The notes below the pieces were generated by a model. The model was not told the origin of the DNA, did not search any database, and worked only from the letters and a program-made list of their open reading frames with translations. Positions 1,102 through 55,878 of a DNA stretch of 64,000 nucleotides are shown piece after piece. The stretch is taken from assembly GCA_029243605.1 (NCBI GenBank), contig JAQWRT010000010.1, positions 64,175 to 128,174 of the forward strand, in the 5' to 3' direction. Every line of letters starts with the position of its first letter. Within the stretch, counting starts at the first letter, position 1. The stretch comes from Myxococcota bacterium. GTDB taxonomy: Bacteria > Myxococcota_A > UBA9160 > UBA4427. A program made the translations under genes and the position numbers.

Positions 1102-2175
1102 CTAGTTCGAAAGCGGGACCGATTTCCCCGAGAGCTGACTTTCCACGAGCATCCCGCAAGCGATCCACTTGTCCCGTGTTCTCTCGGTGATCAAGCCCAG
1201 GCGAATCAGGTTTGGGACGACAGTGTGCATATACAACTGGGAATTGAGCTCATTCCATTCGGGCATGGCGAGCATTCCCTCGGTGACCTGGTTCGCATCG
1301 ATTCCGTATTTCGGTCCGAGAGCGTGAAGCATCCCCAACTGCTGGGAAGCGTTGAGCGCTTCGAGGACCTTGAAGGCCCAATCTTCCATCTGATCACGCT
1401 GCTCAGGCTCAGCGCGCTCCACCACTCGACGCATGGTGAAAACCCCGAAGGCTGCGTGCCGCGCCTCGTCTTGTTCGGCTCGCTGGAGCAACTTCACCAG
1501 GAGAGGGTTGAAGGCCTGCTCGCGCATCATGCCCATAATTCCCACGGCCATTCCCTCGAAGAGGGTCTGCATCCCGAGGGTTTTCATATGGTAACCCTCC
1601 ACCACCAAGAGTTCGTCGAGGAGGAATTTTAAGGTCGGCATGATGGGATAGATCGTGCCCATCTTTTCTCCCGTCAGGCGAGCGAAAATCTCGATATGCC
1701 GAGCCTCATCGGCGACCTGGTTGGCTGCGTAGAGCTTTTCGTCCGTGGTCGGGCAGAGTGAGGTCAACTGGCCGCAGAGTTGAAGAGCCGCCTGCTCGCC
1801 GTGCAAAAGCTGGGAGCAGGTGTAGGCAACCTCGTCAAACATGGCTGCCTTCTGTTCGGCCTCGCTTTTCCCCATCATCTTCAACAGGTTGGCGAGCATC
1901 GACATGTCGAGTTCGCCCATCCACTCGTCCTTGCTCACCGGGGTTTCCCAATCCAGGTCCTTCGAAGCGTTCCACTGATTGGCTTTGCCCTTCTCGTAGA
2001 GCGACCTCAGTTCTTCAACTTCACTTCCGTATTCCCAATCGTTCCAGCGAATATGGGTTGGCGTGTCGACGGAAAGGGTTTCTCTCATAGAGGAAATCTC
2101 TTCCGAATCTGCAAAGTCAATCAGCTCAAAGCCCGCCACGGATCGCCGGGTGTGGTTCAGAAATTTGGAATCCAA
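1102..2175 (-). CDS. ferritin-like di-iron carboxylate oxygenase family protein (AurF-like four-helix-bundle type; substrate unknown)
   Basis: 357 aa with two E-x-x-H motifs (ADEARHIEIF and QDEARHAAFG), each preceded by an acidic helix (LHGEQAAL, LFEGMAVG). This is the spacing expected for a di-iron centre. Confidence 0.65.
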   Translation of the reverse strand: MDSKFLNHTRRSVAGFELIDFADSEEISSMRETLSVDTPTHIRWNDWEYGSEVEELRSLYEKGKANQWNASKDLDWETPVSKDEWMGELDMSMLANLLKMMGKSEAEQKAAMFDEVAYTCSQLLHGEQAALQLCGQLTSLCPTTDEKLYAANQVADEARHIEIFARLTGEKMGTIYPIMPTLKFLLDELLVVEGYHMKTLGMQTLFEGMAVGIMGMMREQAFNPLLVKLLQRAEQDEARHAAFGVFTMRRVVERAEPEQRDQMEDWAFKVLEALNASQQLGMLHALGPKYGIDANQVTEGMLAMPEWNELNSQLYMHTVVPNLIRLGLITERTRDKWIACGMLVESQLSGKSVPLSN

Positions 2176-2211: not shown

Positions 2212-3306
2212 TTAGCGGCCCAGAAGATCTTGCAATGCATGGGTCTGGGCGGTCTCGTCGTCACCGACATCCAGGTTGGTATTGCGCGACCCCCCGAAAT
2301 TATTCAACCCCAGACGCTCGCGGAATTCCCCCGAGCCCACCCGGGTTCCCTCATCCAAAGGGATCCCGATACTATCGGCCACTCGGACCAAGCCGTTAAA
2401 ACTTCCCACTGTCGCTGCCGCCTGCACCAAAGCTTCCTCGCCCGCAGCGGCGAGCAATTGTCCGCGCACCTCGGCGAGTTCCTCGCTTCCTCGGGTCGCG
2501 GCCTCGGCGAAGGCGATGAGAAGCCCTCCATGGGGAACCCCTCCATCGCCGTGGCCCACCGCTGCATCGAGTTCCGCTTCCTCGCCAATCGCCTCGCTGC
2601 TCGCACGGAGCAGCAATACATGCGAGGTCGTTCAGTAGAAACACTCGTTCACCGAGGACACCCTAGCCGCGACGAGTTCGACCTGGGGGCGCGAGAGGGC
2701 GCTTTCATCCCAGACCAATTCGGAGAAGCGCTTCAGCGCGTACATGCTGCCGACCAATCCGAAAAAGGCTGCATTGTCTAGGGGCACAAGACCCAGGGCT
2801 TTGGAGACGTTCGGCCCCGGAAGGCCCTTCGCCGTGGGAACAAAGGCTCCGGCTTCTGCCACACCCTCGGGCCGAACCCGATCGGGCTCTCCCGGCAAAG
2901 CCGCCGGCAAGGGCTCAAGATCAACGCCGAGAGCTTCGGCGAAGGCATCGATGACCGTCGTGCAAACCACGACGGCGCAAAGTTCGGCGTAGGCGGCATC
3001 GCCAAACTCCTCAACCCAGTCCGCGACCCACTCGGCGTTCAGGGCATGAACATCCACCGCGACCTTGAGCACGAGTTCCACCGCCCGGTCGGGGAGAATG
3101 TCCGGCTCGGAGAGAGGGGCCGTCCGCTGCCACGGGGGAAGACTCCGGCGGCTCCGAACGTCTCGAGCCAGACGGGCAGCCTCCACCCGCTGAGTTCCAG
3201 TCCACCAGGAGCCCGGCGAGGCGATCCGGTGCCAGGCCGAACGGTGAGCGTCCGCGATCTCTTCCGGTACCGCGTGGGGGGACGAGGCGTAAAGAAAGGA
3301 ATTCAC
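2212..3306 (-). CDS. AhpD/carboxymuconolactone-decarboxylase-like redox protein, candidate selenoprotein (in-frame UGA at 2632-2634)
   Basis: Track ORFs 2632..3306(-) and 2212..2616(-) are in the same frame, separated only by TGA plus 5 sense codons. The read-through junction is ...VNE-C-F-Y-[UGA]-T-T-S-H-VLLLRASSEA..., which equals the AhpD-family C-x-x-C-x-x-x-H active-site spacing with UGA in place of the second Cys. The downstream piece has only a TTG 'start' and no Shine-Dalgarno. GTG start at 3306. Confidence 0.6.
2594..2616 (-). promoter_or_regulatory. SECIS-like mRNA hairpin downstream of the in-frame UGA
   Basis: The mRNA reads UGA-ACGACCUCGCAUGUA-UU GCUGCUC CGUGC GAGCAGC GA. It forms a 7-bp perfect G/C-rich stem (2608-2614 with 2596-2602), extendable by U.G and U-A pairs. 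The 5-nt apical loop CGUGC contains GU. The stem starts 15 nt after the UGA and the loop starts 24 nt after it. Confidence 0.45.
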
Positions 3307-3333: not shown

Positions 3334-4332
3334 TCAATCCCCTCTGCTCTCCCCGGCTCCTGTCCTCTCTGCTCCTGCACTCTCCGCTCCCCCACGACTT
3401 TCCAGGCGACGAAGCCGGTAGGAAACGTCTTCCAGCAGGCTGCGACTGCCGTTGATCAGGTCGGCCACAATACCGGTGAGGATCATCTGAAACCCGGCCA
3501 GCATCAGGATCGCTGCGAGGATCAGGGATTGCACATGAAGCGAGTGGTGGTCCGTAAAGAAGAAGAAGTAGACAAAGCGCAAGCCGAGCAGAACCCCAAG
3601 GGTCATGACGAGCCCCCCCAGCGCGGAGAAGACCTTCATGGCGCCATAAGACGAGTAGACCCGCAGCAAGATGCCCGCAGAGCGCCCGATAAACTCGCCC
3701 AGGCTCGAGAAGAGTCTCGACTCGCGTAGCGCTTCGTTGGTCCCGATGGGAACGCTGAGCGTCGGGATTCGACGCCTTCCCGCCTGAATGACGTGGTCGA
3801 CGGTATGGTCGAATTCGGCGAGGTTATTGATACGCGAAGCCGCCTCGCGTGAATACGCTTTGAAGCCACTCGCGACGTCGGGCACATCGAGCCGAGCCAA
3901 GCGGCTCACGGTTCGACTTCCCCATTTCTGAAGCCGCTTCTTGGTCGGGGAGAAGTGCTCGATTTCATCGGGCTGACGATCCCCGATCACCAGTTCGGCC
4001 CTGCCCTCGAGGATCGGACGAACCAGCTTGGCAATATCGGACCCGCAGTATTGGTTGTCCCCGTCCGTATTCACGATCAGGTCTGCGCCCTCGCCCAGGG
4101 CATAATCGATCCCCGCGGCAAAGGCATGGCCCAGCCCTCGATTGGCCGCGAACCGGACAAGGTGGTCGACCCCGTGCTCCAGGGCGATCTCCGACGTTCG
4201 ATCGCTACTTCCATCGTCGATGACCAGAATTTCGATGGAATCGATGCCTTCGATCTGGCTGGGAAGATCGCGGAGGGTCGCCGGAAGCGTGAGTTCCTCG
4301 TCGAGACACGGAATCTGGATGATGAGCTTCAA
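3334..4332 (-). CDS. family 2 glycosyltransferase, GtrB/ArnC/Dpm1-like polyprenyl-phosphate sugar synthase type with C-terminal TM helices
   Basis: The GT2 core reads KLIIQIPCLDEE...ILVIDDGSSDRT...NTDGDNQY, with two hydrophobic C-terminal segments (FSALGGLVMTLGVLLGLRFVYFFFF; LILAAILMLAGFQMILTGIVADL). The 490-aa track ORF is over-extended into the divergent intergenic region. I place the start at TTG 4332 (LKLIIQIP); the exact start is uncertain. Confidence 0.75.
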   Translation of the reverse strand: MKLIIQIPCLDEELTLPATLRDLPSQIEGIDSIEILVIDDGSSDRTSEIALEHGVDHLVRFAANRGLGHAFAAGIDYALGEGADLIVNTDGDNQYCGSDIAKLVRPILEGRAELVIGDRQPDEIEHFSPTKKRLQKWGSRTVSRLARLDVPDVASGFKAYSREAASRINNLAEFDHTVDHVIQAGRRRIPTLSVPIGTNEALRESRLFSSLGEFIGRSAGILLRVYSSYGAMKVFSALGGLVMTLGVLLGLRFVYFFFFTDHHSLHVQSLILAAILMLAGFQMILTGIVADLINGSRSLLEDVSYRLRRLESRGGAESAGAERTGAGESRGD

Positions 4333-4560
4333 GCGCTGCCCCCGATGACGTTGTCTGTACCGCTTGAGAATACGCGATTTGCCCAGGGAGCGACGGCCAT
4401 CGAAAAGATAAGGGGGCTCAAACCGATCCCTGGCCCAGTGCTTGACCCGGACGAAGGGGGGGCGGGGCGGCACTGGAAAAAGCACCCACCTCGGGAGGAA
4501 AAAGTGGCTGTCCAGCGCACACGCGCCCGGGTACGGGTATCCTCGGGCTCTGGGGTGGGG

Positions 4561-6108
4561 ATGGGATTCTCGAAGCAGCGGCGTTGCGCCTTCTGGCTGG
4601 GCCTGGTTCTGATTCTCGCCCTGGTCGGCCCGAATTCGGGGCGGAGCGAACCTCCGGGGGCCGAACCCGAGCCCCCCTCGGACCCCTCGGACCCCTGGGA
4701 CCCCTGGGAACTCGGCTTCGAAGCCCTCGAGCAGGGCGAATGGACTGCCGCGATCGAGTTCTTCTCCGGGCTGAGCCTCGAGCAGCCCGACAACGCCGCA
4801 CTTCACTACTACCTGGGAGTCGCCTGGGTGAGTTCTGGAGACGACCTCTCTGGGGTGGAGGCTTTCGCCGACGCCGCCGATCTCGACCCGACGCTCAGGT
4901 GGGTTCAGGCTGACCTGGGGATGAGCCTATACCGCCTGGGTGAACTCGATCTCGCCGAGGAACATCTCCTGGAGGCATTGCTCCAGGGTCCGGACGAAGC
5001 CGATGTTCTGCTCTACCTCGGACTCATCGACCTCACCCATGGGTACGCCGAACGGGGCAACCGGATGATCGAGGAGAGCGTGGCTCTCCATCCGGCGATC
5101 GCCGCCCCCGCCTTCTTTCAGGCCGCCGGAGTATCCCTCGACCGCAACGACCTCACCGCCGCGACGATCTACCTCGAGCGCGGCGCCCTGGCCAAGGGCC
5201 CCGAAGAGTGGCGCGCGGCCTCCGCCGAGTTGTTGGCCAGCCTGAGCGAAGCCAAGATGGGCTCACGTCGCATTCGCCTCATGGCCGCCGTCGGATTCGA
5301 AAACGATGACAACCTGACCGTGAGTGAACAGGACCTATCGACCGGTGTGGGTGATATCTCCGGAACCTTTGAAGTCGACATAGAAGTCGTCGTCGTCGAA
5401 AATGAAAATCTCGTGGTTGCCGTGGGATACGATTTCTTTCAGAGCGTTTACCAGGATCTGGAGGCATTTAATCTCCAAATCAACGAGCCCCATCTCCAGA
5501 TTTCCGGCTTCATGGATTTTTTGCAGCCCGTAATCACCTACGCGTACCGAAGCGAGAGCTACCGCGATCTCGACTACCTCGATTCAAATATCCTCGATCT
5601 CGATCTCGCCCTTTGTCACTGGGAACACACCTGCGTCCTACTTGGGACGGGCTACGAACGACGCGATTTCGCCGCGACTCCCTTTGCCCCGCAGAGGGTG
5701 GCCAATCGTTACTCGCTCTTCGTAGGCCAGCAGACTTTTTTCTTGGACGGAAAACTCGCATTCTCCTTGAGCTGGGAGCCTCAATGGCAAAATTCGGAGC
5801 AGGCTTTCCTCAGCTACGACGCACAGATCGCGAATATCGGTCTCACGGCGATGCTCGACCCCTTCTATAAGGGGCTACTCCTGGGCGCCTCGTATGAGTT
5901 CGAGTCCCGGGACTACTCAAAGGCCGACTACGCGAGAGAACTCAAGCGAGAGGACGATCGCCATATCGTATGGACGGGCATCCGATTTCCGCTCATCGGT
6001 CCGACCCAGATCTCCTTCGACTACATGCTGATCCTGTCTCGATCGAGCATCACAGCCCTTAACTACAACGAGAATATCGTCAGCCTCAAACTCTGGGCCT
6101 GGCATTGA
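4561..6108 (+). CDS. secreted TPR-repeat protein with C-terminal outer-membrane beta-barrel-like domain (DUF560/Slam-like or PgaA/BcsC-like architecture)
   Basis: ATG at 4561 is followed by a signal peptide (MGFSKQRRCAFWLGLVLILALVG). TPR-like repeats follow (AALHYYLGVAWVSSGD..., ADLGMSLYRLGELDLAEEHL...). The C-terminal ~270 aa have alternating amphipathic beta-strand patterning and an aromatic terminus (SLKLWAWH). The track ORF from 3955 is a false 5' extension antisense to the GT2 gene. Confidence 0.6.
   Translation: MGFSKQRRCAFWLGLVLILALVGPNSGRSEPPGAEPEPPSDPSDPWDPWELGFEALEQGEWTAAIEFFSGLSLEQPDNAALHYYLGVAWVSSGDDLSGVEAFADAADLDPTLRWVQADLGMSLYRLGELDLAEEHLLEALLQGPDEADVLLYLGLIDLTHGYAERGNRMIEESVALHPAIAAPAFFQAAGVSLDRNDLTAATIYLERGALAKGPEEWRAASAELLASLSEAKMGSRRIRLMAAVGFENDDNLTVSEQDLSTGVGDISGTFEVDIEVVVVENENLVVAVGYDFFQSVYQDLEAFNLQINEPHLQISGFMDFLQPVITYAYRSESYRDLDYLDSNILDLDLALCHWEHTCVLLGTGYERRDFAATPFAPQRVANRYSLFVGQQTFFLDGKLAFSLSWEPQWQNSEQAFLSYDAQIANIGLTAMLDPFYKGLLLGASYEFESRDYSKADYARELKREDDRHIVWTGIRFPLIGPTQISFDYMLILSRSSITALNYNENIVSLKLWAWH
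4672..4707 (+). repeat. imperfect 9-bp tandem repeat (gacccctcg/gacccctgg, about 4 units) inside the coding sequence
   Basis: The sequence read directly is cccccctcg gacccctcg gacccctgg gacccctgg. It encodes the P-S-D-P-S-D-P-W-D-P-W linker just after the signal peptide of the TPR/barrel protein. Confidence 0.8.
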
Positions 6109-8971: not shown

Positions 8972-9999
8972 TCCGGAACAGCCGCCCCGCTGCGGTGCTC
9001 CTGAAGGAGGGTGAGAATTTGATTAATGGTCTCTTCTGAGTAGCGCCCGGTTCCTCGCAACTGGGTGATGGCCTGGGCGCTGATGCTTCGCCAGCGCTGC
9101 ACTTCCTCTCGGGAAGAGGCCGAAACGAACTCGATCCCCTGGCTCTTCAGAGCCTCCCGGGCGTTACTTTCGTCGGCACGGTTCACTTCATCAAGCCTGC
9201 TCGCTGCCGCCGAAACCACCTCGCGCACAACTTTTTGATCCTTGGCGGAGATTTTCGAGAAAGCTCTCTGGTCGACAGCGAAAATTCCAACCAAATACAT
9301 GATGGGAACCTCGGTGAGATACTTGACTCGCGTATGCCATTGGAAGGCGATGGCCCCGATCGGCGGAGCCGCCACCGTGTCCACCAGCCCGGTCTGGAGC
9401 GCGGTATAAACGTCGGCGATCGGCAGGGGAACCGGAGCAACCCCAGCAATGCGAAGAGCCACATCGGTCATCGTGTCACCTTCGACCAACCAGACCCGCG
9501 TACCCTCCATGTCTTCAACTCTGCGGATGGGCTTCTGGGAGAGCACATAGGCAAAGCCTCCATCGGTAATGGCGAGAGCCTCGAAACCATTCTGAGCTAG
9601 GCCTTTCATGATCTTCTGATCAAGCTGGCTGCGGACGAAATCGACTTCTTCGTAATCCCTGAACAGGAGAGGAAGGCTGTAGAGTTCGGCGTCGGGGTAC
9701 ACCGCCGCCAGGGCTCCGCTGGTAAATGCCCCCCCCTGCAACTGTCCAGCTCGAACCTTGCGCATGACGGTCTTATCACCACCCATCACACCACCGGGGT
9801 AGAACTTGAGCTTGACTCGCCCCTGAGTCCTCTCCTTGATCTCGTCACCCGCTTTTCGCATTTCCGCCAACCAACTGCTTCCATCGGGAAGGATTGTGGC
9901 GATCTTCAGAGTTCGCGCGGAAGCTTCGGCTCCAGCCATCCCCAGCGACAGGCCGACGAGCGCGATGACAGCCCGGAACGAAACCAGTTTGCGACGCAT
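8968..9999 (-). CDS. dctP: TRAP transporter substrate-binding protein (DctP family)
   Basis: 343 aa with a signal peptide, then RTLKIATILPDGSSWLAEMRKAGDEIKERTQGRVKLKFYPGGVMGGD..., typical of DctP-type SBPs. Confidence 0.9.
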   Translation of the reverse strand: MRRKLVSFRAVIALVGLSLGMAGAEASARTLKIATILPDGSSWLAEMRKAGDEIKERTQGRVKLKFYPGGVMGGDKTVMRKVRAGQLQGGAFTSGALAAVYPDAELYSLPLLFRDYEEVDFVRSQLDQKIMKGLAQNGFEALAITDGGFAYVLSQKPIRRVEDMEGTRVWLVEGDTMTDVALRIAGVAPVPLPIADVYTALQTGLVDTVAAPPIGAIAFQWHTRVKYLTEVPIMYLVGIFAVDQRAFSKISAKDQKVVREVVSAAASRLDEVNRADESNAREALKSQGIEFVSASSREEVQRWRSISAQAITQLRGTGRYSEETINQILTLLQEHRSGAAVPE

Positions 10000-15874: not shown

Positions 15875-17125
15875 TCAGCGCGCGTCGCTCCAGTGGGGAT
15901 AATCCGAACGCATTTTCTGCAAGCCGAACTGGGCCTCCAGCCATTCGATGATTTGCGGACTCAAACTCAGATCGCGAGCCTCGGCTGGATCCGAGAGATC
16001 GAAAACTCGGATTTCTCCCTCGGGTGCGCGCAGTTCCAACCGAGTGGGCAGGCCGAGAGCGACGAGATCTACAGCGTTCCCCGTATAGTGGTCCGAAGCC
16101 CGAGCGCCTGCCTCGGTGGCGAAGACGACCTCGTAGGTCTCCGCCATGGCCAAGGCCGCATCGCGTGTCGCCTGCCAGCCCTTGGGATCCAGCCAACGAA
16201 TCTGCACTTCGAGCCCCCACTCCTCGCGCGCACGCTCCAGGCGCTTCACCCCGGCCAGGAGTTCCTCTTCATTGGCGGCCCGGCTCAGGAGAAAGGCGCC
16301 CCACATGAGGTAGCCGCGCTCGGGGCTACGCACCGTAGAATTCAAGTAGACCTCGGCACCCTGGGCACGCAATTGGGCGATGAGCGAACGAACGCGCTGG
16401 GCCAGAGCGCTCTCGTCCCGGATCCGGGCCAGAGCGGCCAGCGCCTCGGGTTCCTTCACCGGGTTCGGATAACGCATCGCCCAAGCCGAACCCGGCGAGT
16501 CGCCGTCCCGGGCCGGAGCCAGATTCAGCTGGGGGCGCGGCGGGTCTATGACCACGGGCCCGTGGGATCCATAAAGCCGAGGCTTACCCTCGAAGATATC
16601 GTCCGGGTGAAGAAAAATTCCCGCCTTCCGGGCCCGGGACGACGTGATCCAGACGACTTCCCCCTCCAGGCCCTGTTCGCCTTCCCGGAGCAGGTCGTCG
16701 AGAAAGAGGAGAAAATCCTCCAGATCCACCGGTCGACCAAAATCTTCCCGCAGGGCGGCCTCGAGGGAAGCTGCTTTGGCCGACGTCGCCAGACGAATCA
16801 AGCGGGGCCCATCCACCTTGACCCCGGCCAGGTCGACCCTCCAGGTTCCCAGGGACTCACCCGCTCTTTGCAAAGCTTCGGCCGGGCCCCCGGACCAGGG
16901 CGGAGGAGGAAGCACGTCATAATTTCGGTCGGGCATCAAGACCCGAACCGGCCCGCTTCCCCAGGCCACCGAGAAGGGGATCGGCGCGCCCATCAGGGTC
17001 AGGAGCAGTCCAAAGACCGTCCATCGAGCGCTTGCCCCAAGATCCGCGCAACCGCCGAAGAGCGGGCGCCCGGTCCAAGCGCCGCTCCGGAGCGCGTTCC
17101 ACCCTGGTCTCCCCCGCCCGGGCAA
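15875..17125 (-). CDS. secreted/membrane-anchored protein with C-terminal M15-family (VanY / D-Ala-D-Ala carboxypeptidase-like, LAS) zinc peptidase domain
   Basis: C-terminal motifs match the M15 pattern: STVRSPERGYLMW (S-x-x-R-S...), ARASDHYTGNAVDL (S-x-H-x-x-G-x-A-x-D) and a terminal DYPHW histidine. An N-terminal hydrophobic anchor is present (WTVFGLLLTLMGAPI). The start (TTG 17125) is uncertain. Confidence 0.6.
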   Translation of the reverse strand: MPGRGRPGWNALRSGAWTGRPLFGGCADLGASARWTVFGLLLTLMGAPIPFSVAWGSGPVRVLMPDRNYDVLPPPPWSGGPAEALQRAGESLGTWRVDLAGVKVDGPRLIRLATSAKAASLEAALREDFGRPVDLEDFLLFLDDLLREGEQGLEGEVVWITSSRARKAGIFLHPDDIFEGKPRLYGSHGPVVIDPPRPQLNLAPARDGDSPGSAWAMRYPNPVKEPEALAALARIRDESALAQRVRSLIAQLRAQGAEVYLNSTVRSPERGYLMWGAFLLSRAANEEELLAGVKRLERAREEWGLEVQIRWLDPKGWQATRDAALAMAETYEVVFATEAGARASDHYTGNAVDLVALGLPTRLELRAPEGEIRVFDLSDPAEARDLSLSPQIIEWLEAQFGLQKMRSDYPHWSDAR

Positions 17126-17128
17126 CGG

Positions 17129-18232
17129 CTAGCCCAAAGCCGAAGAGCCAAAGAGGTGGCGAGCCCGCTCTTGCTGGGTTTCCCGGGCCTGATCATGCAG
17201 GCTGAGCTGGCCGAGAGCCCGGTACAAATTGTGCTCTCCACGAGTCGAAAAATTCTCGGGACTCCAGGCAAAATGGCTCTCAAAAAGGGCATCGGTGGCG
17301 AAGCGCGCGCTGAGTTCCAGGCTCACGTACTCGAGCGCCGGAATCATCGAGTCGCGCTCCTCTCCGAGCAACTCGAAATTCAACTTCGAGAAATACCCCT
17401 CGGCCGAGGCGGCAAAGATCTCGAGATCGAGACGAATATCCTCGGGCCCCTCGCCCCCCACGTTGCACCAGGACCGCCAGGCATCGCCCATATCGTAGAA
17501 GAGCGGCAAGCGTGAAATCGTATCGAGATCAATCAGCGATTGAGCGCGATCGCGTTCGGGCGGGTTTGCTCCTGCGAAGAGGATATTGCTGAGTTTCAGA
17601 TCGCCGTGCAGAACACGCCGGGGAAGCGACAAGCGCGACGGCCAGGTCGCGTGGATCGAGAAAATCTTTTCGGCCAGCTCACTTACCCTCGACCGCAGGG
17701 GGTGATCCCTGCACTCCTCGAGCGCTCGGCGAAGGTCCTCCAGATGCTGGTCCATCTCGTGGAATGGGAATCCGATGGGTTCGAGGGGTCCGTCCCAATC
17801 CGCCATGCTCCCGTGAAAGGCGGCGACGAGTTCGCCGGCACTGCGCGCCTGGGCCGGGCTCTGACATTTTCGGAAGGTGACGCCGGGAAGACGCTTCATC
17901 ACTCGCCAACGCCCACCCTCCCCGAGATCCGAGAAGAGCGCGCCCTCATCCGTCGTCAAGAGCTGGGCCACCGAGACGTCGCCATCGCCGAGGTGGCTGG
18001 AAACCGCCTGCATGTTGCGGTGGATGCCCGATGCAAAGTCTCCATGAACCCGTTGGGCCACGTACTCGGCGCCCGGGACCATGGCCCGCCAGCTCTGGTT
18101 GATGAGCCCGCCCTCCAGGGGTTCCACCCTCGCCCCGGAAAGAGCCGACCACGCCTTCAAGGCGCGTTCTACCGCTTCTCTTTCCACTCCTCCAGACCCG
18201 GCCATACCACAGGCTAGTCTCCCCCAACCCAC
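17129..18232 (-). CDS. aminoglycoside-phosphotransferase (APH)/choline-kinase-fold small-molecule kinase
   Basis: 367 aa with the Brenner motif VLHGDLKLSNILF and the metal-binding IDLDT motif. The stop lies 3 nt before the downstream gene's start. Confidence 0.8.
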   Translation of the reverse strand: MGWGRLACGMAGSGGVEREAVERALKAWSALSGARVEPLEGGLINQSWRAMVPGAEYVAQRVHGDFASGIHRNMQAVSSHLGDGDVSVAQLLTTDEGALFSDLGEGGRWRVMKRLPGVTFRKCQSPAQARSAGELVAAFHGSMADWDGPLEPIGFPFHEMDQHLEDLRRALEECRDHPLRSRVSELAEKIFSIHATWPSRLSLPRRVLHGDLKLSNILFAGANPPERDRAQSLIDLDTISRLPLFYDMGDAWRSWCNVGGEGPEDIRLDLEIFAASAEGYFSKLNFELLGEERDSMIPALEYVSLELSARFATDALFESHFAWSPENFSTRGEHNLYRALGQLSLHDQARETQQERARHLFGSSALG

Positions 18233-38933: not shown

Positions 38934-39145
38934 CGGGTGAGCCTATCCGAGGCGCCGGATGAGTGCTATTCGGCCCCGGCCGGCTTCCCGAGTACGCAAA
39001 TCCTCACCGAAAACTTCGTTTTTGGCTGAAATTTTCGAAAGGAGTACGTTCTTTCTGCTCTTGCCCGGCAGGTTGCCTTCCGATACCGAGGAGGAGCGCG
39101 GCATTGCCCGCGACCACTCGATCCGCCCACGTCCGAGGAGTGCAG

Positions 39146-39862
39146 ATGACCCGCGCCATCGTCGTTGTGCCCACCTACAACGAGGCCGAAAACATTCCCC
39201 TCCTGGTCCCCCAGATTCTGGCCCAGGACGAGAGCCTGGAAGTTCTCATTGTCGATGATGCCTCTCCCGACGGAACGGGCGAAATCGCCGATACCCTCGC
39301 CGCAAGCGAAAGCCGGGTTCACGTCCTTCACCGGCCAGGCAAACAGGGCCTTGGCCCCGCCTATCGGGCAGGCCTTGCCCAAGCCCTGGAACTCGGCGCG
39401 GATTTCGTAATCCAAATGGATGCAGATTTCTCCCATCCCCCCACGAGCCTCCCGCAATTTCTCGAGGAAATAGAAAACCACGACGTGGTCCTGGGGTCTC
39501 GCTACTTGAACGGCATCACCGTGGTCAACTGGCCGATCGAAAGAATACTCATCAGCTGGTTCGGAAACGTCTATGCGCGCAGGATCAGTGGGCTCCCAAT
39601 CAGCGACACCACGGGCGGGTTTCGCTGCATGCGCCGAAGCGTGCTCGAGAAAATTGACTTCGGGCGCGTCCGCTCCAATGGCTACGCATTCCAGATCGAG
39701 ATGAACTACCGATTTGTCAAGCAGGGAGCTCGACTGAAGGAAGTTCCCTTCTTCTTCGTCGACCGAACCCGAGGGACTTCCAAACTCAATTTCCGGATCG
39801 GTCTCGAAGCGCTCTGGATGGTTTGGTGGCTCCGCATTGCCGACGCGCTAGGCCGCCTCTAG
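39146..39862 (+). CDS. polyprenol-monophosphate hexose synthase (Dpm1/Ppm1-like GT2), copy 1
   Basis: 238 aa from ATG 39146, with a GAGGAG Shine-Dalgarno 6 nt upstream. IVVVPTYNEAENI...LIVDDASPDGTGEIA...HRPGKQGLGPAY...QMDADFSHPP is the Dpm1/Ppm1 catalytic-domain pattern. The track ORF from 38963 is over-extended. Confidence 0.85.
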   Translation: MTRAIVVVPTYNEAENIPLLVPQILAQDESLEVLIVDDASPDGTGEIADTLAASESRVHVLHRPGKQGLGPAYRAGLAQALELGADFVIQMDADFSHPPTSLPQFLEEIENHDVVLGSRYLNGITVVNWPIERILISWFGNVYARRISGLPISDTTGGFRCMRRSVLEKIDFGRVRSNGYAFQIEMNYRFVKQGARLKEVPFFFVDRTRGTSKLNFRIGLEALWMVWWLRIADALGRL

Positions 39863-39896
39863 GGGAACGAGATGCCTCAAAGAAGGTCTTATCACT

Positions 39897-41027
39897 TTGA
39901 ATAATCTCGCCGACCGGCCGTGCAGAGTATTGCTCCTGAACGAACGGGACCCTCTCCATCCCAAAACCGGTGGGGCCGAAACTCACGTCTACGAGATTTT
40001 TGAGCGCCTGACCCAGCGCGGATACTCGGTCACCCACTTCAGTTCATCTTTCCCCGGGTCCCCAGAAAAAGAGCGCCATCAGGGAATCGAAATTCGTAGG
40101 CTCGGGGGGCTCCCTGTTTACTATCCCCGAGTGCTTTGGGAGACCGCGCGTGAAACCCGGAAGGGCAACTTCGATCTCGTCGTGGAATGCCTGAACAAGG
40201 TTCCCTTTTACTCACCCGCCTACTCGTCTGTTCCCGTCCTCGCCCTATGCCATCACCTCTTCGGCGAAGTCGCTTTCCAGCAAGTGCCTTGGCCCATCGC
40301 GGCTACCGTATGGGCTTCTGAACGCTTGATCCCTCCGCTCTACCGCTCGAGGCCCTTTCTGGCAATTTCGGAAAGCACCCGGCGCGACCTGATCGGCCGA
40401 GGCCTCCCCCCTTCGCATATCCGCGTGAGCCAGCCGGGCATTGCGCCGCCCACCCTCGAAGTCGATCCCAGTCCAAACCAGGGCCAGGGCGTCATCTATG
40501 TCGGACGACTCGAGGTCTACAAGAAAATCGACGTTATGCTCAGGGCCATGGCGAAGCTCTCCGACACTTTCCCCCAAGCGCCCATCGTCATTGTGGGTCG
40601 TGGGCCCGCGCGGTCCGGTCTTGAATCTCTTGCCCAGGAGTTGGGGATCTCTGATCGCACCCGGTTTACGGGCTTCGTCGAGGACTCGGAACGCGACCGA
40701 CTCCTCTCCGAAGCGCGTGTCTGCGTCTGCCCCTCCGAAAAAGAGGGCTGGGGCCTGACCGTGATGGAATCGTGCGCGGTGGGCACGCCGGTGGTGGCCA
40801 CGAATGCCGATGGGTTGCGGGACTCGGTGCGCGATGGCGAAACCGGTTATCTGGTCGAGGAAGGTGATGTCGACGGCTTTGCAGCGCGCATCGGCCAACT
40901 CCTCGAGGACGATGCTCTCGCGGGCAGGATGGCTTCCCAGGCCATCGCCTGGGCAAAGCATTTTGATTGGGACCGCGCCGCGGATGATATGGCGGGCGCC
41001 ATTGAGGAAGCCCGAGGAAGGCCATGA
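39897..41027 (+). CDS. family 4 (GT-B) glycosyltransferase
   Basis: 376 aa. The C-terminal half has the GT4 E-x7-E region (PSEKEGWGLTVMESCAVGTPVVATNADGLRDSVRDGETGYLV). TTG start, uncertain. Confidence 0.85.
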   Translation: MNNLADRPCRVLLLNERDPLHPKTGGAETHVYEIFERLTQRGYSVTHFSSSFPGSPEKERHQGIEIRRLGGLPVYYPRVLWETARETRKGNFDLVVECLNKVPFYSPAYSSVPVLALCHHLFGEVAFQQVPWPIAATVWASERLIPPLYRSRPFLAISESTRRDLIGRGLPPSHIRVSQPGIAPPTLEVDPSPNQGQGVIYVGRLEVYKKIDVMLRAMAKLSDTFPQAPIVIVGRGPARSGLESLAQELGISDRTRFTGFVEDSERDRLLSEARVCVCPSEKEGWGLTVMESCAVGTPVVATNADGLRDSVRDGETGYLVEEGDVDGFAARIGQLLEDDALAGRMASQAIAWAKHFDWDRAADDMAGAIEEARGRP

Positions 41028-41109
41028 ACCGGAAACCCTACGATCTAGGGCATCCCGGGCCCGCCTTCTTCCCCGCACTCTTTTCCCATCGGATAGATCG
41101 GGCAAGCCG

Positions 41110-42036
41110 ATGAAATTCCTCCGATGGTCCATCCCTTTCCTGATCAGCGCACTCCTCCTCGCGTGGGTATTTCAGGGCATGGAATGGGGCGAACTTCGGG
41201 ACAAGCTGACTTTCGAAACGGTTCAAGTATTCGGACCGGCACTCATCGCATTTCTTGCGGTGAGTCTCCTGATCGAAGCCGTCTGCCTGGTGGATGTCGT
41301 ATCCCATAGCCATCACATGCCGAGTCTTCTGGTGGCAGCGCGTATCAAGGCCGCCAGTTACCCCTTGGGCATTCTCAACTATGCCCTGGGAATCGGTGCG
41401 GTCACCCTCCTGCTTCGCCGACGGGTGGGCATGTCCCTGCAAGAAGCGGCTGGAGCTGTAGGCGTCATCGGTCTCTTCGATCTCGGAAGCTTGATCGCGA
41501 TCATCGCCGTGGGCGCAGCCCTGATGGGCGCCGAAACTCCGGGGGTTCAGGCCGGTGTCCTGGCCGCAGTTGCGGCGGCCATCGGCATCGGTTTCGCCAC
41601 ACTGCGAGCTCCATTCTCCCTGGGCTGGATCGATCGCCTGCGCGATCTACCGATTTTGCATGCCGCGCGAACCCTGCCCCTCTCGGTTCTGGTCCGACTT
41701 GCCTGCCTGCGATTGATTTTCACCGGCAATTTCATCGCCCTGGGCTGGGCGGTTCTAGCGGGCTTCGGCGTCGATGGGATCCCCCTTCTCTCCCTGGCGG
41801 TCAATATTTCCGTTCTCCTAATCGTCGCCGCGCTGCCCATTGCCGCAGCTGGCCTGGGCACAGGTCAATGGGTATTCGTCGAGCTCTTCAAACCCTGGGC
41901 CGATCCCGCGACGCTTCTTGCCGCCAGCCTGACTCTCTCCCTCGGGCTGATCGTCACCCGGGCGGCCATCGGCCTGGTCTTCGCCCGAGAGTTCACCGCC
42001 GAAGCTCTAGCTGCCCAAAAAGAGGAGGAAGCGTGA
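41110..42036 (+). CDS. UPF0104 / LPG-synthase-TM-like 'flippase-like' polytopic membrane protein
   Basis: 308 aa from ATG 41110 (MKFLRWSIPFLISALLLAWVF...), with about 8 hydrophobic helices. Size and pattern fit the PF03706-type family often found beside GT2/GT4 genes. The track ORF from 40804 overlaps the GT4 gene. Confidence 0.5.
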   Translation: MKFLRWSIPFLISALLLAWVFQGMEWGELRDKLTFETVQVFGPALIAFLAVSLLIEAVCLVDVVSHSHHMPSLLVAARIKAASYPLGILNYALGIGAVTLLLRRRVGMSLQEAAGAVGVIGLFDLGSLIAIIAVGAALMGAETPGVQAGVLAAVAAAIGIGFATLRAPFSLGWIDRLRDLPILHAARTLPLSVLVRLACLRLIFTGNFIALGWAVLAGFGVDGIPLLSLAVNISVLLIVAALPIAAAGLGTGQWVFVELFKPWADPATLLAASLTLSLGLIVTRAAIGLVFAREFTAEALAAQKEEEA

Positions 42037-42827
42037 GCGATCTTCTCTTTACCGGCGAGCGTCTCCACAAGGAGAATCCGCTTTTTTCCATCGACCTGGT
42101 GCGCCATCGGGCCGCGTATAGCCGCGCCATCGAGTTGGCCCGCACCACGGGCGCAGAGCGCGTCTTGGACCTGGGCTGCGGCACCGGATATGGCACGGGC
42201 GAACTGGCCGCAGCGCTCCCCAGGACCTTCGCGGTCGATCGAATTTCCCCCGACCCCGGCGCCCGTCACCCGGCCGCCCATTTTATCCGCGCAGATGCGG
42301 CTCACCTTCCCCTGCGCACTCAAAGCTTCGACATGATCGTCAGCTTCCAAGTCATCGAACACCTCGAAGATCCGGCCCCCTATCTGAAAGCCATAGCCCG
42401 ACTTCTCAAACCGGGCGGGACGGCCTTGATCACGACACCCAACCTCCTTGAATCCGACCGGGAGAACCCTTTCCACGTTCACGAATACGAGGCCTCCGAA
42501 TTGACCGCCCTGCTCGGTGAACATTTTTCCCGCGTCGACATGCTGGGCGTCTCCGCCACTCCCGAACCCAAGGCCTACTACGATGCGCGCTTGAAGCGAA
42601 TTCGCTCCATCGTCCGCCTCGACCCCCTCGGCCTGCGCAGACGACTTCCCCGCTGGATCATCGACGGACTCTTTGCCCTCTTCGCCGTGCAGGTCCGAAG
42701 AGGGATCCAAAAAAGCGACGGGCTACCCCAGGTCGGCCTCGAGGATTTCCCGATCCTTGCTGCCCAACCCGACTGTCTCGATCTCTTCGCTGTCTGCCAA
42801 AAACCGCGTAGGGAAAGCGGGTCGTGA
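42033..42827 (+). CDS. class I SAM-dependent methyltransferase
   Basis: GTG 42033 overlaps the upstream stop (GTGA). Motif I reads RVLDLGCGTGYGTGELA, with a post-I acidic residue and FDMIVSFQVIEHLEDP...LLKPGGTALITTPN. Confidence 0.85.
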   Translation: MSDLLFTGERLHKENPLFSIDLVRHRAAYSRAIELARTTGAERVLDLGCGTGYGTGELAAALPRTFAVDRISPDPGARHPAAHFIRADAAHLPLRTQSFDMIVSFQVIEHLEDPAPYLKAIARLLKPGGTALITTPNLLESDRENPFHVHEYEASELTALLGEHFSRVDMLGVSATPEPKAYYDARLKRIRSIVRLDPLGLRRRLPRWIIDGLFALFAVQVRRGIQKSDGLPQVGLEDFPILAAQPDCLDLFAVCQKPRRESGS

Positions 42828-43513
42828 AGGAACGCGTTTTTCGCTTCCGTGCCATCGAGAAACGCATCGCGGCTTCCAAGCCCCGATTCCGAGTGCTGGA
42901 TATCGGCTGTGGCCGGGGGGATAACCTCCGGCGACTCGTCCGCTACGGGGGAGAGCCCTTGGGCATCGAGCCCTCTCTCGAACGGGCCCAGCAGGCTCGA
43001 GCGATTGCGCCGGTCGCCGTTGCGGTCGGCGAGCATATTCCGCTCCCAAACAACAGCTTTGACATGGTCTACATCTCCCATGTCCTCCACCACGCGCGCG
43101 ATCTCCCCCAAGTCCTCTCCGAGTCTCAGCGATTACTCACCCCAGGAGGGCTCCTCTTCGTCATCGAAACCATCGATGACAGCCCCCTGATGCGTTTGGC
43201 CAGGGCCCTCCAACCGAGTTGGGAAGACGATGAGGTCATGAACCGTTTTCGCTACGCGGATCTGGTAGAAAGCTTCGAGGGCGCGGGCTTCGAGGTCCTC
43301 ACCGGGGAGAAATTCAATAGCCTTTATTTTGCCTGGGAACTTCTACCCATGAAGGTCCGCGCCTTGGAGTTTTTCACGCCACTCTTCGTCGGCCTCGAAA
43401 TGATCCTCCACGCTCTGGTGGGCCGCCGTTGGGGGGGGCACTGCTACCTCGTCGCGCGCCGACCCGGTTCGCCCCGTTTCCCCGATGAGGGCATTTCGCC
43501 GCCCCGGGGCTGA
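42824..43513 (+). CDS. class I SAM-dependent methyltransferase
   Basis: GTGA overlap with the upstream methyltransferase. Motif I reads RVLDIGCGRGDNLRRL, followed by FDMVYISHVLHHARD...LLTPGGLLFVIE. Confidence 0.85.
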   Translation: MKERVFRFRAIEKRIAASKPRFRVLDIGCGRGDNLRRLVRYGGEPLGIEPSLERAQQARAIAPVAVAVGEHIPLPNNSFDMVYISHVLHHARDLPQVLSESQRLLTPGGLLFVIETIDDSPLMRLARALQPSWEDDEVMNRFRYADLVESFEGAGFEVLTGEKFNSLYFAWELLPMKVRALEFFTPLFVGLEMILHALVGRRWGGHCYLVARRPGSPRFPDEGISPPRG

Positions 43514-49846: not shown

Positions 49847-50617
49847 CTAGTCCCCGCCTTCGGGCCCGCGCTCTTGGCCCAATCCGGGCAGCTTCGGCGG
49901 CCGAAAGGCTGTGAGCAGGACGTACCAGGCCGCCAGATAGATCTCTGCGCCTTCGATCTTCGAAACCCCTGCAACGCGCTGCTCGAAGATGATCGGGACC
50001 TCTCCGATCGAAAAACCATAGCGGGTGACTCGCCAGGCCATCTCCTCGAGGAACGAATAGCCCGAGGAACGAATCTCAAAAGGGTGCACCGTTTCGAGAA
50101 CTTTCCGCCGGTATCCGCGATAGCCCGCCGTGCAGTCGTGAACGTCGACCCTCAGCAGCGTCCGGGCATAAAAGTTGGCGAATTTCGAGAGCAAACGCCG
50201 ATGCCAGGGCCAATTCTCGATTCCGCCGCCGGGAACATAACGAGAGCCGACGACCATATCCCGATCATCGAGCAGGGCGATGAGCGCCGGCAGGTATTTC
50301 GGGTTGTGGCTGAAATCGCAATCCATGGTGAAGATGAAATGGAAACCTCGATCCAAACCGAACCGGAAGCCACTGAGGTAGGCCGTACCCAGACCCAGCT
50401 TGCCTGGTCGCCGGAGGAGGTGGAGCCGGGGCTCGGTCTCCTGGGCGCGTTCGACGAGATCACCAGTTCCATCCGGGCTGTTGTCATCGACGACGAGGAC
50501 TTCGATTCGAGGATCTTCTGCCAAAACCAGCCCGGAGAGTTCGACGACATTGCCAGCCTCGTTATAGGCAGGCAGGATCACCAGGATGCGCTCCTCGGAG
50601 GTGCTCTCGGAACTCAC
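49847..50617 (-). CDS. polyprenol-monophosphate hexose synthase (Dpm1/Ppm1-like GT2), copy 2
   Basis: 256 aa. ILVILPAYNEAGNV...LVVDDNSPDGTGDLV...RRPGKLGLGTAY...TMDCDFSHNP is collinear with copy 1 and clearly paralogous to it. Confidence 0.85.
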   Translation of the reverse strand: MSSESTSEERILVILPAYNEAGNVVELSGLVLAEDPRIEVLVVDDNSPDGTGDLVERAQETEPRLHLLRRPGKLGLGTAYLSGFRFGLDRGFHFIFTMDCDFSHNPKYLPALIALLDDRDMVVGSRYVPGGGIENWPWHRRLLSKFANFYARTLLRVDVHDCTAGYRGYRRKVLETVHPFEIRSSGYSFLEEMAWRVTRYGFSIGEVPIIFEQRVAGVSKIEGAEIYLAAWYVLLTAFRPPKLPGLGQERGPEGGD

Positions 50618-50732
50618 TGGCGATTCCCTCGGCTCATCGGACGACTCCCAGGCTCAGATCCCTCATTTTTCACTCTCCCAGGATACCCACTGGCGACCCT
50701 CGGCGACAAATTTCCAATCACCGCCAAGGGAG

Positions 50733-51620
50733 TCAAGCCGCTCGAGCGATGACGAAAAGGCGATTCTCTCGCCCGAGAAGTTTGCCCGCCAGGAACATGG
50801 ACTGAAGGCCAAGCCGCACCAGGGGGTGAAGGGTGAGCCTGCGCAAGTCCGTCGATTCCTGCTCGAGTTGGACGACCTCCAGGCCACCCAATGCGAGACA
50901 ATCTCGGAGGCTGTCGGGAGTGAAATAGAGGAAATGCTGCTCGATATAAAATTTCTCGAGGGGCGCGGTCAATCGGCCCCCGGACAAGCGATACATCGCC
51001 CCGCCCACTAGGTCCAGAATGCTTCGCTGGTTCGGCGTCGAGAAACTGACGAGGCCGCCCGGCGCCAGGCATTCTCGGGCCGCCCTCACCAGACTGGCCG
51101 GCGAGCGTGAGTGCTCGATGACGTCCCAGCCCGTGACGAGGTCGAAGCTCTCACCCATATCGGTCAGAGATTCGAACTCACCCACCCAGGGGTCGAGACC
51201 GAAATGTCGCCGAGCGTGGTCGGTGGCTTCGATGCTCTCATCGATTCCGTAGGGCTCCCAACCTCGCCGCCGAGCCACCGCCAGGAAGAGACCCGTTCCG
51301 CATCCCACGTCGAGCAAGCGACCCGGAGCCTTGACGCGCTCGATGATATCGAGCCAGGCCTCGAACTGTTCCACCAGGGGGTTTCCGGGTTCGTCTTCAA
51401 AGCAGAAGCCGTAATAATCTTTGAGCTCGGGGACCGACCCTTCGCCGCTGGTGTAGAGCGATTTGAAGAGTTCCTGGATCTCCTCCTCGCTGGGGAGCGG
51501 ATCCAGGAAGATCTGCCCACACGGTCCGCACTCGACAACGTCGAAACGCGTGATGCGATACCGCAGACCGATTTCCTCGGATCCGCAGATCAGGCACGAA
51601 GTTTTGGAGGGATCCGACAC
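50733..51620 (-). CDS. class I SAM-dependent methyltransferase with N-terminal Cys4 zinc-ribbon
   Basis: 295 aa. CLICGS...ECGPCGQIFLDPLP is followed by motif I LLDVGCGTGLFLAVA and DVIEHSRSP. Confidence 0.85.
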   Translation of the reverse strand: MSDPSKTSCLICGSEEIGLRYRITRFDVVECGPCGQIFLDPLPSEEEIQELFKSLYTSGEGSVPELKDYYGFCFEDEPGNPLVEQFEAWLDIIERVKAPGRLLDVGCGTGLFLAVARRRGWEPYGIDESIEATDHARRHFGLDPWVGEFESLTDMGESFDLVTGWDVIEHSRSPASLVRAARECLAPGGLVSFSTPNQRSILDLVGGAMYRLSGGRLTAPLEKFYIEQHFLYFTPDSLRDCLALGGLEVVQLEQESTDLRRLTLHPLVRLGLQSMFLAGKLLGRENRLFVIARAA

Positions 51621-54074: not shown

Positions 54075-54926
54075 ATGACCCGCCCGGCCCTTAGCCTTGA
54101 TTTGCGTACCCTGCTGCTCTTGGCTGCCCAGTGGACCCTCTTCCTCGGGAATTTCGTGCTCTTTGCGGCCGATACCCTACCCCTTTGGGCCCATATGCTC
54201 ATCACGCTCGTAGTCGTCCACCTCGCCTTTACGATCTGGCACGAAGCCGCCCACGGCACAATCTCGAATCGACGTGGGCTCAACAATGCGGCGGGGATCC
54301 TCGGGATGCTTCCCTACACCACGCCGTATTTCATGCAGCGGCACGTGCACCTTCAACACCATAAATACCTCAACGAGCCGGGTCTCGATCCGAACCTCAT
54401 CTATGCGGACGGACCTTTCTGGCAGCTCCTTTTCCGTTACCTGAAAGCCGTCTCCTACCTCAGGTCGGTGCTCAGGGACGACCCCCGTTCGCTGAGGATG
54501 CGAGCCTCTGACACTTTTTTCGTGGCCCTGGTCGCGGGGGCCTACCTCTTCGCGTTGTCACAGGGTTTCCTGCTGGATCTGATCCTGATCTGGTTCGTTC
54601 CCCTGGTGGGCGCGAAGATCATTATGGACTGGTATATCAACTATCTCCCGCATGTCGGCCTGCCCTCCGACCGCTTTCTGGGAACGCGGATCATCACCGC
54701 CCGATGGCTGACGCCTCTCGTACTGAGCCACAACTACCATGCAGTCCACCATCTCTGGCCCACGATTCCGTGGCACGGCTACATCGCGCGCTTCCGCGCA
54801 AAGCAGGACTACCTTGTGGCGAACGGCGTCCCCATCGAGAGTCGTCTTTTCGGCCCACGCCTTTTACCCGAAGGCGGAGCTACTTCCCAGCACGACCCGC
54901 CGAACGAAGTCACTTCGGGTGGTTAA
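54075..54926 (+). CDS. membrane fatty-acid-desaturase/hydroxylase superfamily protein (three His boxes)
   Basis: 283 aa with His boxes HEAAH, HLQHH and HAVHH in the canonical order and TM helices between them. Confidence 0.8.
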   Translation: MTRPALSLDLRTLLLLAAQWTLFLGNFVLFAADTLPLWAHMLITLVVVHLAFTIWHEAAHGTISNRRGLNNAAGILGMLPYTTPYFMQRHVHLQHHKYLNEPGLDPNLIYADGPFWQLLFRYLKAVSYLRSVLRDDPRSLRMRASDTFFVALVAGAYLFALSQGFLLDLILIWFVPLVGAKIIMDWYINYLPHVGLPSDRFLGTRIITARWLTPLVLSHNYHAVHHLWPTIPWHGYIARFRAKQDYLVANGVPIESRLFGPRLLPEGGATSQHDPPNEVTSGG

Positions 54927-55878
54927 GCCCGGCTCCCTCGAACTCGAGAGGGTCCGCTGTGCCCTCTGCGGATCCGAACGCTCGGAGACTTCGGCGACCG
55001 GGGAAGATTTCGAGTACGAAACCTCCGACGACACCTTTCATTTCGTGCGCTGCCTGGACTGCGATCACCAATACCTCGATCCGCGGCCAGCGACATCCGC
55101 CCTGGATACGATCTATCCCTCCGACTACTACTCGTTCGTGGGAACGACGAATCCCCTGGTGGCCCTTCTTCAGCGCTTCTGGGAAGGCGGAAAGGTTCGG
55201 CTCTACGGCGGATTCGTAGGTCAAGGCGAGCGAAACCTCCTCGATGTCGGCTGCGGCGACGGCCGATTCCTCTCACTTCTCGAGCGACAAGGGGATCCTC
55301 AGTGGAACCCCGTGGGCCTCGAATTCGACGAGGGGGCCGTAGCGAGTTGTCGAGCGAAGGGGTACGAGGCCCATTGCGAACGAATCGAAGACTTCGCCCA
55401 GCGCCCTGATCAGAAAAATCGCTTCGACGCCATCCTCATGCTCCAACTCCTCGAACACGTCGACGATCCCGCCCGGGTGTGTGAGCACGTTCATACACTT
55501 CTCAAGCCGGGGGGGGCCTTCATCGTCGAAACCCCAAACCTCGGCGGGCTCGACTACCGGCTATTCGCCGGGCGTTGGTGGGGCCACTACCATTTTCCCC
55601 GACACTGGAATCTGTTCCGGCTTGCCTCCCTTTCGCAACTCCTCGCATCGAAAGGCTTTGAGATCGACCGCGCCGAATATCTCATCAGCACCTCCTCCTG
55701 GATCATCTCTCATCGAAATTATTTCAAGGATCGAGGCTGGCCCCGCCCCTGGTGGCGCTTCTTTTCCTACCAGAACCCCCTGCTTCTTGGCCTGGCGGTA
55801 ATCGTCGATCAATTTCGCATTCGCTCAGGCCGGGAGACGAGCAACATGCGCGTCATCGCGCGCAAGCGCGCCCACTGA
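54919..55878 (+). CDS. class I SAM-dependent methyltransferase with N-terminal zinc-ribbon
   Basis: GTG 54919 overlaps the desaturase stop by 8 nt. CALCGS...CLDCDHQYLDPRP is followed by motif I LLDVGCGDGRFLSLL and QLLEHVDDP. It is paralogous to 50733..51620. The track ORF from 54739 is over-extended. Confidence 0.8.
   Translation: MVKPGSLELERVRCALCGSERSETSATGEDFEYETSDDTFHFVRCLDCDHQYLDPRPATSALDTIYPSDYYSFVGTTNPLVALLQRFWEGGKVRLYGGFVGQGERNLLDVGCGDGRFLSLLERQGDPQWNPVGLEFDEGAVASCRAKGYEAHCERIEDFAQRPDQKNRFDAILMLQLLEHVDDPARVCEHVHTLLKPGGAFIVETPNLGGLDYRLFAGRWWGHYHFPRHWNLFRLASLSQLLASKGFEIDRAEYLISTSSWIISHRNYFKDRGWPRPWWRFFSYQNPLLLGLAVIVDQFRIRSGRETSNMRVIARKRAH

Follow-up and report, generated by a model that had tools for sequence, protein, structure and literature searches.

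The question raised by this locus is whether a TGA lying within a reading frame ends a gene or is decoded as selenocysteine (Sec) inside a longer one. The locus, 2212-3306 on the reverse strand, belongs to a stretch of 64,000 nucleotides (the window hereafter) of contig JAQWRT010000010.1, in the assembly GCA_029243605.1 of a Myxococcota bacterium. A preliminary description of the window had noticed two adjacent open reading frames (ORFs), 2632..3306(-) and 2212..2616(-), and had proposed that they form a single candidate selenoprotein gene. The evidence supports this proposal: the read-through product matches a curated family of (seleno)proteins; the TGA is conserved; the frame downstream of it is open; and a hairpin of the selenocysteine insertion sequence (SECIS) type follows it. 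With high confidence, 2212-3306(-) is a single gene encoding a 364-residue selenoprotein of the NCBIfam family NF041238, a branch of the AhpD/carboxymuconolactone decarboxylase (CMD) superfamily.

One reading frame and its family

The frame starts with a GTG and runs through 224 sense codons up to the TGA. Beyond it come five sense codons (ACG ACC TCG CAT GTA) and then TTG 2614-2616, the listed 'start' of the downstream ORF of 134 amino acids. The joined frame terminates at a TAA and contains one internal stop (Table 1). Sequence and translation thus confirm that the two ORFs share a frame and are parted by the TGA and five sense codons. Around the stop, the read-through product is ...RPQVELVAARVSSVNE-C-F-Y-[TGA]-T-T-S-H-VLLLRASS.... 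Its length is 364 residues (224 + Sec + 139), and not 359 as first stated.

Table 1. Features of the selenoprotein locus, in window coordinates.
Feature	Position	Strand	Details and basis
Probable selenoprotein gene, complete	2212..3306	-	GTG 3304-3306, Sec-TGA 2632-2634, TAA 2212-2214; NF041238 match
In-frame TGA, probably read as selenocysteine, residue 225	2632..2634	-	TGA conservation, four assemblies, Cys forms
Redox motif C222-F-Y-U225-T-T-S-H229 (CxxU...H)	2620..2643	-	Motif conservation; PDB CxxC alignment
Glu210 codon, 12 residues ahead of Cys222	2677..2679	-	E210 invariant in 28 sequences
Bacterial SECIS-type hairpin	2594..2616	-	Stem 2608-2616 with 2594-2602, loop 2603-2607; overlaps codons L-L-L-R-A-S-S
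Predicted extended lower stem around the hairpin	2580..2627	-	2622-2627 with 2580-2585, minimum free energy structure
Pfam CMD (PF02627) core, residues 190-236, across the TGA	2599..2739	-	Pfam score of the read-through product
C-terminal 139 residues past Sec, completing the AhpD/CMD fold	2215..2631	-	Open conserved frame, orphan fragments, PDB alignments to residue 315

For profile searches, a cysteine was written at the TGA position of the joined protein. The read-through product matches NF041238 with 312.3 bits (E = 4.7e-93, curated cut-off 175), residues 14-337 of the protein aligning on positions 2-355 of the 357 of the model. This model is an equivalog named 'AhpD_rel_CFYUT', 'alkylhydroperoxidase-related (seleno)protein', and its name spells the very motif, C-F-Y-U-T, that is seen in the window. 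The gene shares with the family this signature, the length (364 vs 357 positions), and a two-part architecture. No difference was detected, and it is an ordinary member of an already known kind, the exact subfamily of which is curated by NCBI.

The other NCBIfam matches of the read-through product are limited to TIGR01926, TIGR00778, and TIGR04030. TIGR01926 (E = 3e-9, 36.9 bits) stays under its cut-off of 81.8, and the protein is a relative of that subfamily and not a member. The canonical AhpD equivalog model is absent from these matches, and ahpC was not found among the neighbours of the gene; the name 'AhpD-related' is therefore preferred to 'AhpD'. The Pfam CMD domain (PF02627) scores 27.0 bits on the read-through product (gathering threshold 23), as compared to 17.2 bits, under the threshold, on the 224-residue piece alone. 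No Pfam match was obtained with the 134-residue piece, nor with the N-terminal domain of ~190 residues.

Conservation of the UGA and its cysteine counterparts

A search of a collection of 5.8 billion proteins returned 96 homologues sharing 32-100% identity with the query. All are ~205-258 residues long and cover just its first ~62%. In the 27 homologues that were aligned, the sequence terminates exactly at ...NECFY, and the final 18 residues form the best-conserved block; C222 is invariant in the family. Such an ending at ...CFY, common to all 96 homologues, is what usually results when a gene caller stops at a Sec codon. NCBI lists the identical sequence (P0001), 224 amino acids long, under the title 'MAG: hypothetical protein P8Q97_02165 [Myxococcota bacterium]' (MAG standing for metagenome-assembled genome).

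To survey genomic loci, one genome per GTDB species was scanned with patterns that left the codon following CFY unspecified, and the matches were confirmed by tblastn. This survey gave 535 loci encoding relatives, and the counts given here come from the best 80 of these 535. They are labelled Myxococcota, Acidimicrobiia/Actinomycetota, Dehalococcoidia/Chloroflexota, Acidobacteriota, Gammaproteobacteria, Verrucomicrobiota, and Spirochaetota, representing at least six phyla, and their tblastn matches are collinear over query residues ~1-345. The codon following CFY is TGA in 84 of 85 motif instances, TTA in one, and TGC or TGT in none (0/85). The TTA instance, encoding Leu, belongs to a second copy (L044:2267) and sits 30 nt from the end of its contig. 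The codons next to it invariably encode [T/A]-x-[S/A]-H, with the histidine at +4 in 85/85 instances. In 84 of 86 cases, the frame continues past the TGA without a further stop for 119-163 conserved codons, and its conserved blocks are LLRxSS, GVPHG, AFAEAA, TVAxFNG, and VRxADGxGIPLD. The UGA and the reading frame on either side of it are conserved across phyla. To note, the Dehalococcoidia/Chloroflexota loci L043, L046, L049, L057, L060, L062, L065, and L067 carry two CFYUT paralogues in tandem, at ~10680 and ~11800 with ~1.1 kb between them, and both copies have an in-frame TGA.

The C-terminal 139 residues alone were searched against 1.84 billion cluster representatives. Most of the 765 matches are orphan fragments, 100-150 residues in length, whose start lies just past the TGA position. 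Three of them are full-length proteins, matching at residues ~253-377, that carry a cysteine at the UGA column, within the motifs NGCFYCTTAH (P0168), NECFYCCTSH (P0218), and NECFYCTNAH (P0228). Furthermore, the CxxC-containing AhpD-core proteins of PDB entries 2pfx, 6k40 ('AhpD'), 2oyo, and 3c1l (TIGR01926 subfamily) yield an unbroken alignment over residues 169-315, in which their CFYC/CVYC/CLYC..(S/A)H motif, or C-x-Y-C-x-x-(S/A)-H, lies over CFY[U]TTSH. These proteins are ~190 residues long, possess Cys and not Sec, and are devoid of the ~170-190-residue N-terminal domain of the window protein. The full-length Cys forms and the PDB alignments together demonstrate that Sec is paired with Cys in the classical manner and that the homologues are collinear across the junction. 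The UGA takes the place of the second cysteine in the E-x11-C-x-x-C-x-x-x-H redox motif, and the histidine stands at the distance that the preliminary description had pointed out. The distant members P0078, P0085, P0168, P0218, and P0228 harbor an inserted second CxxC (e.g. CPHCAARK, CALCKKRK) at ~residue 53-60 of the N-terminal domain, which the window protein does not possess.

The ORF listing and the public gene callers output separate pieces, which could be read as two genes: a 224-residue protein ending at the TGA and a 134-residue protein starting from TTG 2616. This reading has next to no probability. The CMD/AhpD fold and the NF041238 model continue through the junction, the best-conserved block of the N-terminal piece is formed by the 18 residues that abut the TGA, full-length Cys forms exist, and the orphan C-terminal fragments of the databases begin at any start codon available past the TGA. 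Homologues ending at the UGA as independent proteins, an outcome that had been envisaged beforehand, are not what the near full-length NF041238 match, the tblastn matches, and the PDB alignments display. It had also been foreseen that a gene caller would split or truncate the gene, and public calls indeed consist of the 224-residue product with, often, an antisense ORF in place of the C-terminal half. This antisense ORF, 180 amino acids long (L081:3112-3654(-) and L082:1302-1844(-), corresponding to ~2239-2781(+) of the window), is probably spurious and a consequence of the TGA truncation.

The TGA and the sequence downstream of it recur in contigs of four independent samples (ERZ27251043, SRR27277817, ERZ27237644, and SRR31183202). 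Three of these contigs are 100% identical to the window across the whole gene, and the fourth (L083, ERZ27237644) has an internal deletion in the C-terminal half. This deletion is in-frame, spans ~residues 237-293 between two GEEA-encoding repeats, and reflects either natural variation or a collapse in the assembly. The TGA being present in four independent assemblies, it is no sequencing error, and the TGC or TGT that re-sequencing might have revealed is found in none of them. A single-base change suffices to turn TGC/TGT into TGA, and the NCBI annotation is just that of a 224-residue hypothetical protein, both of which would suit an AhpD-like gene inactivated, or seemingly so, by a mutated or misread Cys codon. 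Such a pseudogene or error is nevertheless practically excluded by the near-universal TGA and the lack of TGC/TGT at this column across phyla, by the open and conserved downstream frame, by the agreement of the four assemblies, and by the synonymous constraint on the hairpin described below. The in-frame stop is no chance feature, since the same stop column is found in database homologues, genomic loci, and independent assemblies.

The hairpin downstream of the UGA

Folding of the RNA past the UGA gives a 9-bp stem, in which positions 19-27 pair with 33-41 as counted from the U of UGA, capped by an apical loop of 5 nt, CGUGC. The loop begins 24 nt past the UGA and has a G at its second position, followed by a U. 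The folding of the 60-nt stretch has a z-score of -2.84 relative to shuffles, and the hairpin alone reaches -13.1 kcal/mol. The consensus of bacterial SECIS (bSECIS) elements comprises an apical loop of 3-9 nt, an upper stem of 4-16 bp, a G within the first two loop positions, usually followed by G or U, a distance of 16-37 nt between UGA and loop, and a minimum free energy of -7.5 kcal/mol or lower (PMC13188914). The window hairpin fits all four constraints of this consensus model, in agreement with the SECIS-type element that the preliminary description had suggested looking for past the UGA.

The hairpin was compared among 82 distinct homologous sequences in a gap-free alignment. Five core pairs are retained in 78-82 of the 82 sequences, and the loop reads N-G-[U/G]-N-N in all of them. 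The SECIS sequence GCUGCUC-CGUGN-GAGCAGC is near-identical across phyla and also encodes the conserved peptide LLRxSS. For the codons +7 to +10 past the UGA (Leu CTN, Leu CTN, Arg CGN, and Ala GCN), third-position entropy among sequences sharing a codon box amounts to 0.40, 0.16, 0.72, and 0.00 bit, respectively. In the rest of the gene, it is 1.61 +/- 0.20 over 116 comparable columns, none of which falls below 1.03. Synonymous sites are frozen exactly at the hairpin, which points to selection at the RNA level. The UGA is followed by a stem-loop that fits the bacterial SECIS consensus and is under RNA-level selection. The extended lower stem predicted around it is unlike between homologues and is not conserved in the family.

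Selenocysteine machinery, neighbourhood, and known relatives

Some observations speak against a selenoprotein gene at this locus. With a strictly contiguous stem, 57 of the 82 homologues agree with all four bSECIS constraints, the rest having an interrupted stem. Covariation within the helix is thin (10 cells changed on both sides, a number reached by 29 of 500 shuffles), because the helix sequence is almost invariant. No Rfam model matches the hairpin: at E <= 10, positions 2450-2750 yield two chance-level matches only, and the whole window yields nothing at gathering thresholds. An NCBIfam scan of 60 ORF translations, which represent essentially all ORFs of ~200 amino acids or more of a crude gene call and some opposite-strand alternatives, did not find selA, selB, or selD in the 64-kb window, and ARAGORN found in it no tRNA, hence no tRNA-Sec. 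Finally, the catalytic chemistry proposed for the CFYUT family is drawn from homology. The absence of sel genes from 64 kb says little, because sel genes and selenoprotein genes are mostly unlinked.

The host is presumably able to insert Sec. In another Myxococcota, the MAG XB_MAG17 (L004, 54% identity), ARAGORN identified a tRNA-Sec at 9786-9884(-), 116 bp upstream of the homologue, which matches Rfam RF01852 with 75.6 bits (gathering threshold 47). The annotated flanks of this tRNA include uvrA and other genes, and no sel genes.

The sel genes and the tRNA-Sec missing from the 64 kb would also be in line with a relic, i.e. a selenoprotein gene by descent, in a host that lost the Sec machinery and produces the truncated 224-residue product only. 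A relic is, however, expected to decay, whereas the gene is intact, exhibits 91% protein identity with the homologue of locus L001, has its hairpin preserved, and is carried by four samples; as sel genes are unlinked to selenoprotein genes in most genomes, this scenario is very unlikely. Another possibility is that the UGA is read through as a residue other than Sec, either by reassignment or suppression of the codon (to Trp, Gly, or Cys) or by Cys insertion via a mis-acylated tRNA-Sec. UGA reassignment does exist in some bacterial lineages, and the Sec machinery of the host is presumed. Yet, of the 51 other ORFs that a crude gene call picked in the window, 24 are terminated by TGA: it is an ordinary stop in about half of the other genes, and the codon is therefore not reassigned. 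Moreover, the conserved hairpin fits the SelB-dependent SECIS model, the family is spread over many phyla with a standard code, and a tRNA-Sec adjoins the homologue in L004, all of which renders a non-Sec read-through extremely improbable.

With Sec as the preferred reading, SelB carrying Sec-tRNA(Sec) and GTP would bind the hairpin and deliver Sec to the UGA, following the established scheme of bacterial Sec insertion. By analogy with AhpD, the protein would act as an oxidoreductase of the peroxidase or thiol-disulfide type: the reduction of a peroxide or disulfide substrate would convert its selenol/thiol form into a Cys222-Sec225 selenenylsulfide, which would then be reduced back, Glu210 and His229 forming a putative proton relay. 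The four residues of the motif E210-x11-C222-x-x-U225-x-x-x-H229 are all invariant in the family. The Glu210-Cys222 spacing is that of the proton-relay glutamate (E-x11-CxxC) of Mycobacterium tuberculosis AhpD. The latter, an AhpC partner, presumably displays the same E-x11-C-x-x-C-x-x-x-H layout as the window protein, in which Sec stands at the second Cys. The window protein differs from it by its domain architecture and by the lack of an AhpD equivalog match or of an ahpC neighbour.

The selenoprotein gene is located between a gene encoding a family 2 glycosyltransferase (GT2) upstream, 3334-4806(-), and a gene encoding an AurF-like or ferritin-like diiron protein downstream, 1102-2175(-), 36 nt off and on the same strand. 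The diiron protein harbors two E..EARH motifs, and its gene has a TTG start and may be co-transcribed with the selenoprotein gene. A tblastn search with four neighbours found them retained only in the closest relative, L001, and all-against-all clustering of the flanking ORFs of 81 loci found no conserved partner gene. The selenoprotein gene looks stand-alone. Further along the window, several GT2/GT4 glycosyltransferases and class-I S-adenosylmethionine (SAM) methyltransferases (DVU_1556-like) are clustered (38963-43513, 49847-51620, and 54739-55878), together with a carotene-hydroxylase-like gene (54075-54926) and a hopanoid-type RND transporter, HpnN (57344-60004). This gene content suggests a region of lipid or envelope modification.

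A scan of the window for further genes with an in-frame TGA gave no other candidate with a redox motif. The ORFs 15893-17515(+) and 17540-18217(+) are long, in the same frame, and parted by TGA 17513-17515, and they have no family matches. The opposite-strand ORF 17129-18232(-) exhibits a weak homoserine-kinase-like match, and the plus-strand pair 15893-18217 is therefore probably its antisense shadow and no second selenoprotein. The other in-frame-TGA candidates of the window, of which one was checked, are probably antisense shadows for the most part.

The first report of AhpD-like CxxU selenoproteins dates from 2005 and concerns 27 Sargasso Sea sequences assigned to COG2128 (PMC1088965). The Global Ocean Sampling (GOS) data of 2008 contained 299 Sec and 902 Cys sequences of 'AhpD-like 1', which ranked fourth in abundance among prokaryotic selenoprotein families (PMC2398784). 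BSepDB, too, devotes a page to the AhpD-like family (PMC13326102). The AhpD-like proteins of Zhang and Gladyshev resemble the window protein in belonging to the AhpD superfamily, in their CxxU motif, in a bSECIS right past the UGA, in their origin from marine uncultured bacteria, and in having Cys homologues. Their family was set broadly, by COG or Pfam, and the equivalence of the window protein to 'AhpD-like 1' as opposed to 'AhpD-like 2' is presumptive.

The CFYUT family is found in marine Myxococcota, Acidimicrobiia, Dehalococcoidia, and others. Its almost invariable TGA (84/85), the rarity of its Cys forms, its ~190-residue N-terminal domain, and the lack of a conserved partner gene bear on the idea that it is an almost obligately Sec-dependent enzyme, with a substrate or an activity new to the AhpD superfamily. 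This idea is tentative and rather unlikely.

The practical value of the finding lies in a correction of annotation, and it opens no new question. In the public record of this MAG, as in hundreds of gene calls from metagenomes, the gene is represented by a 224-residue 'hypothetical protein' cut short at the TGA; many of these calls also contain an orphan fragment or, over the C-terminal half, a spurious antisense ORF. Once joined, the pieces would form a complete redox enzyme and mark the organism as a selenium user, providing one more Myxococcota member for an abundant marine selenoprotein family.

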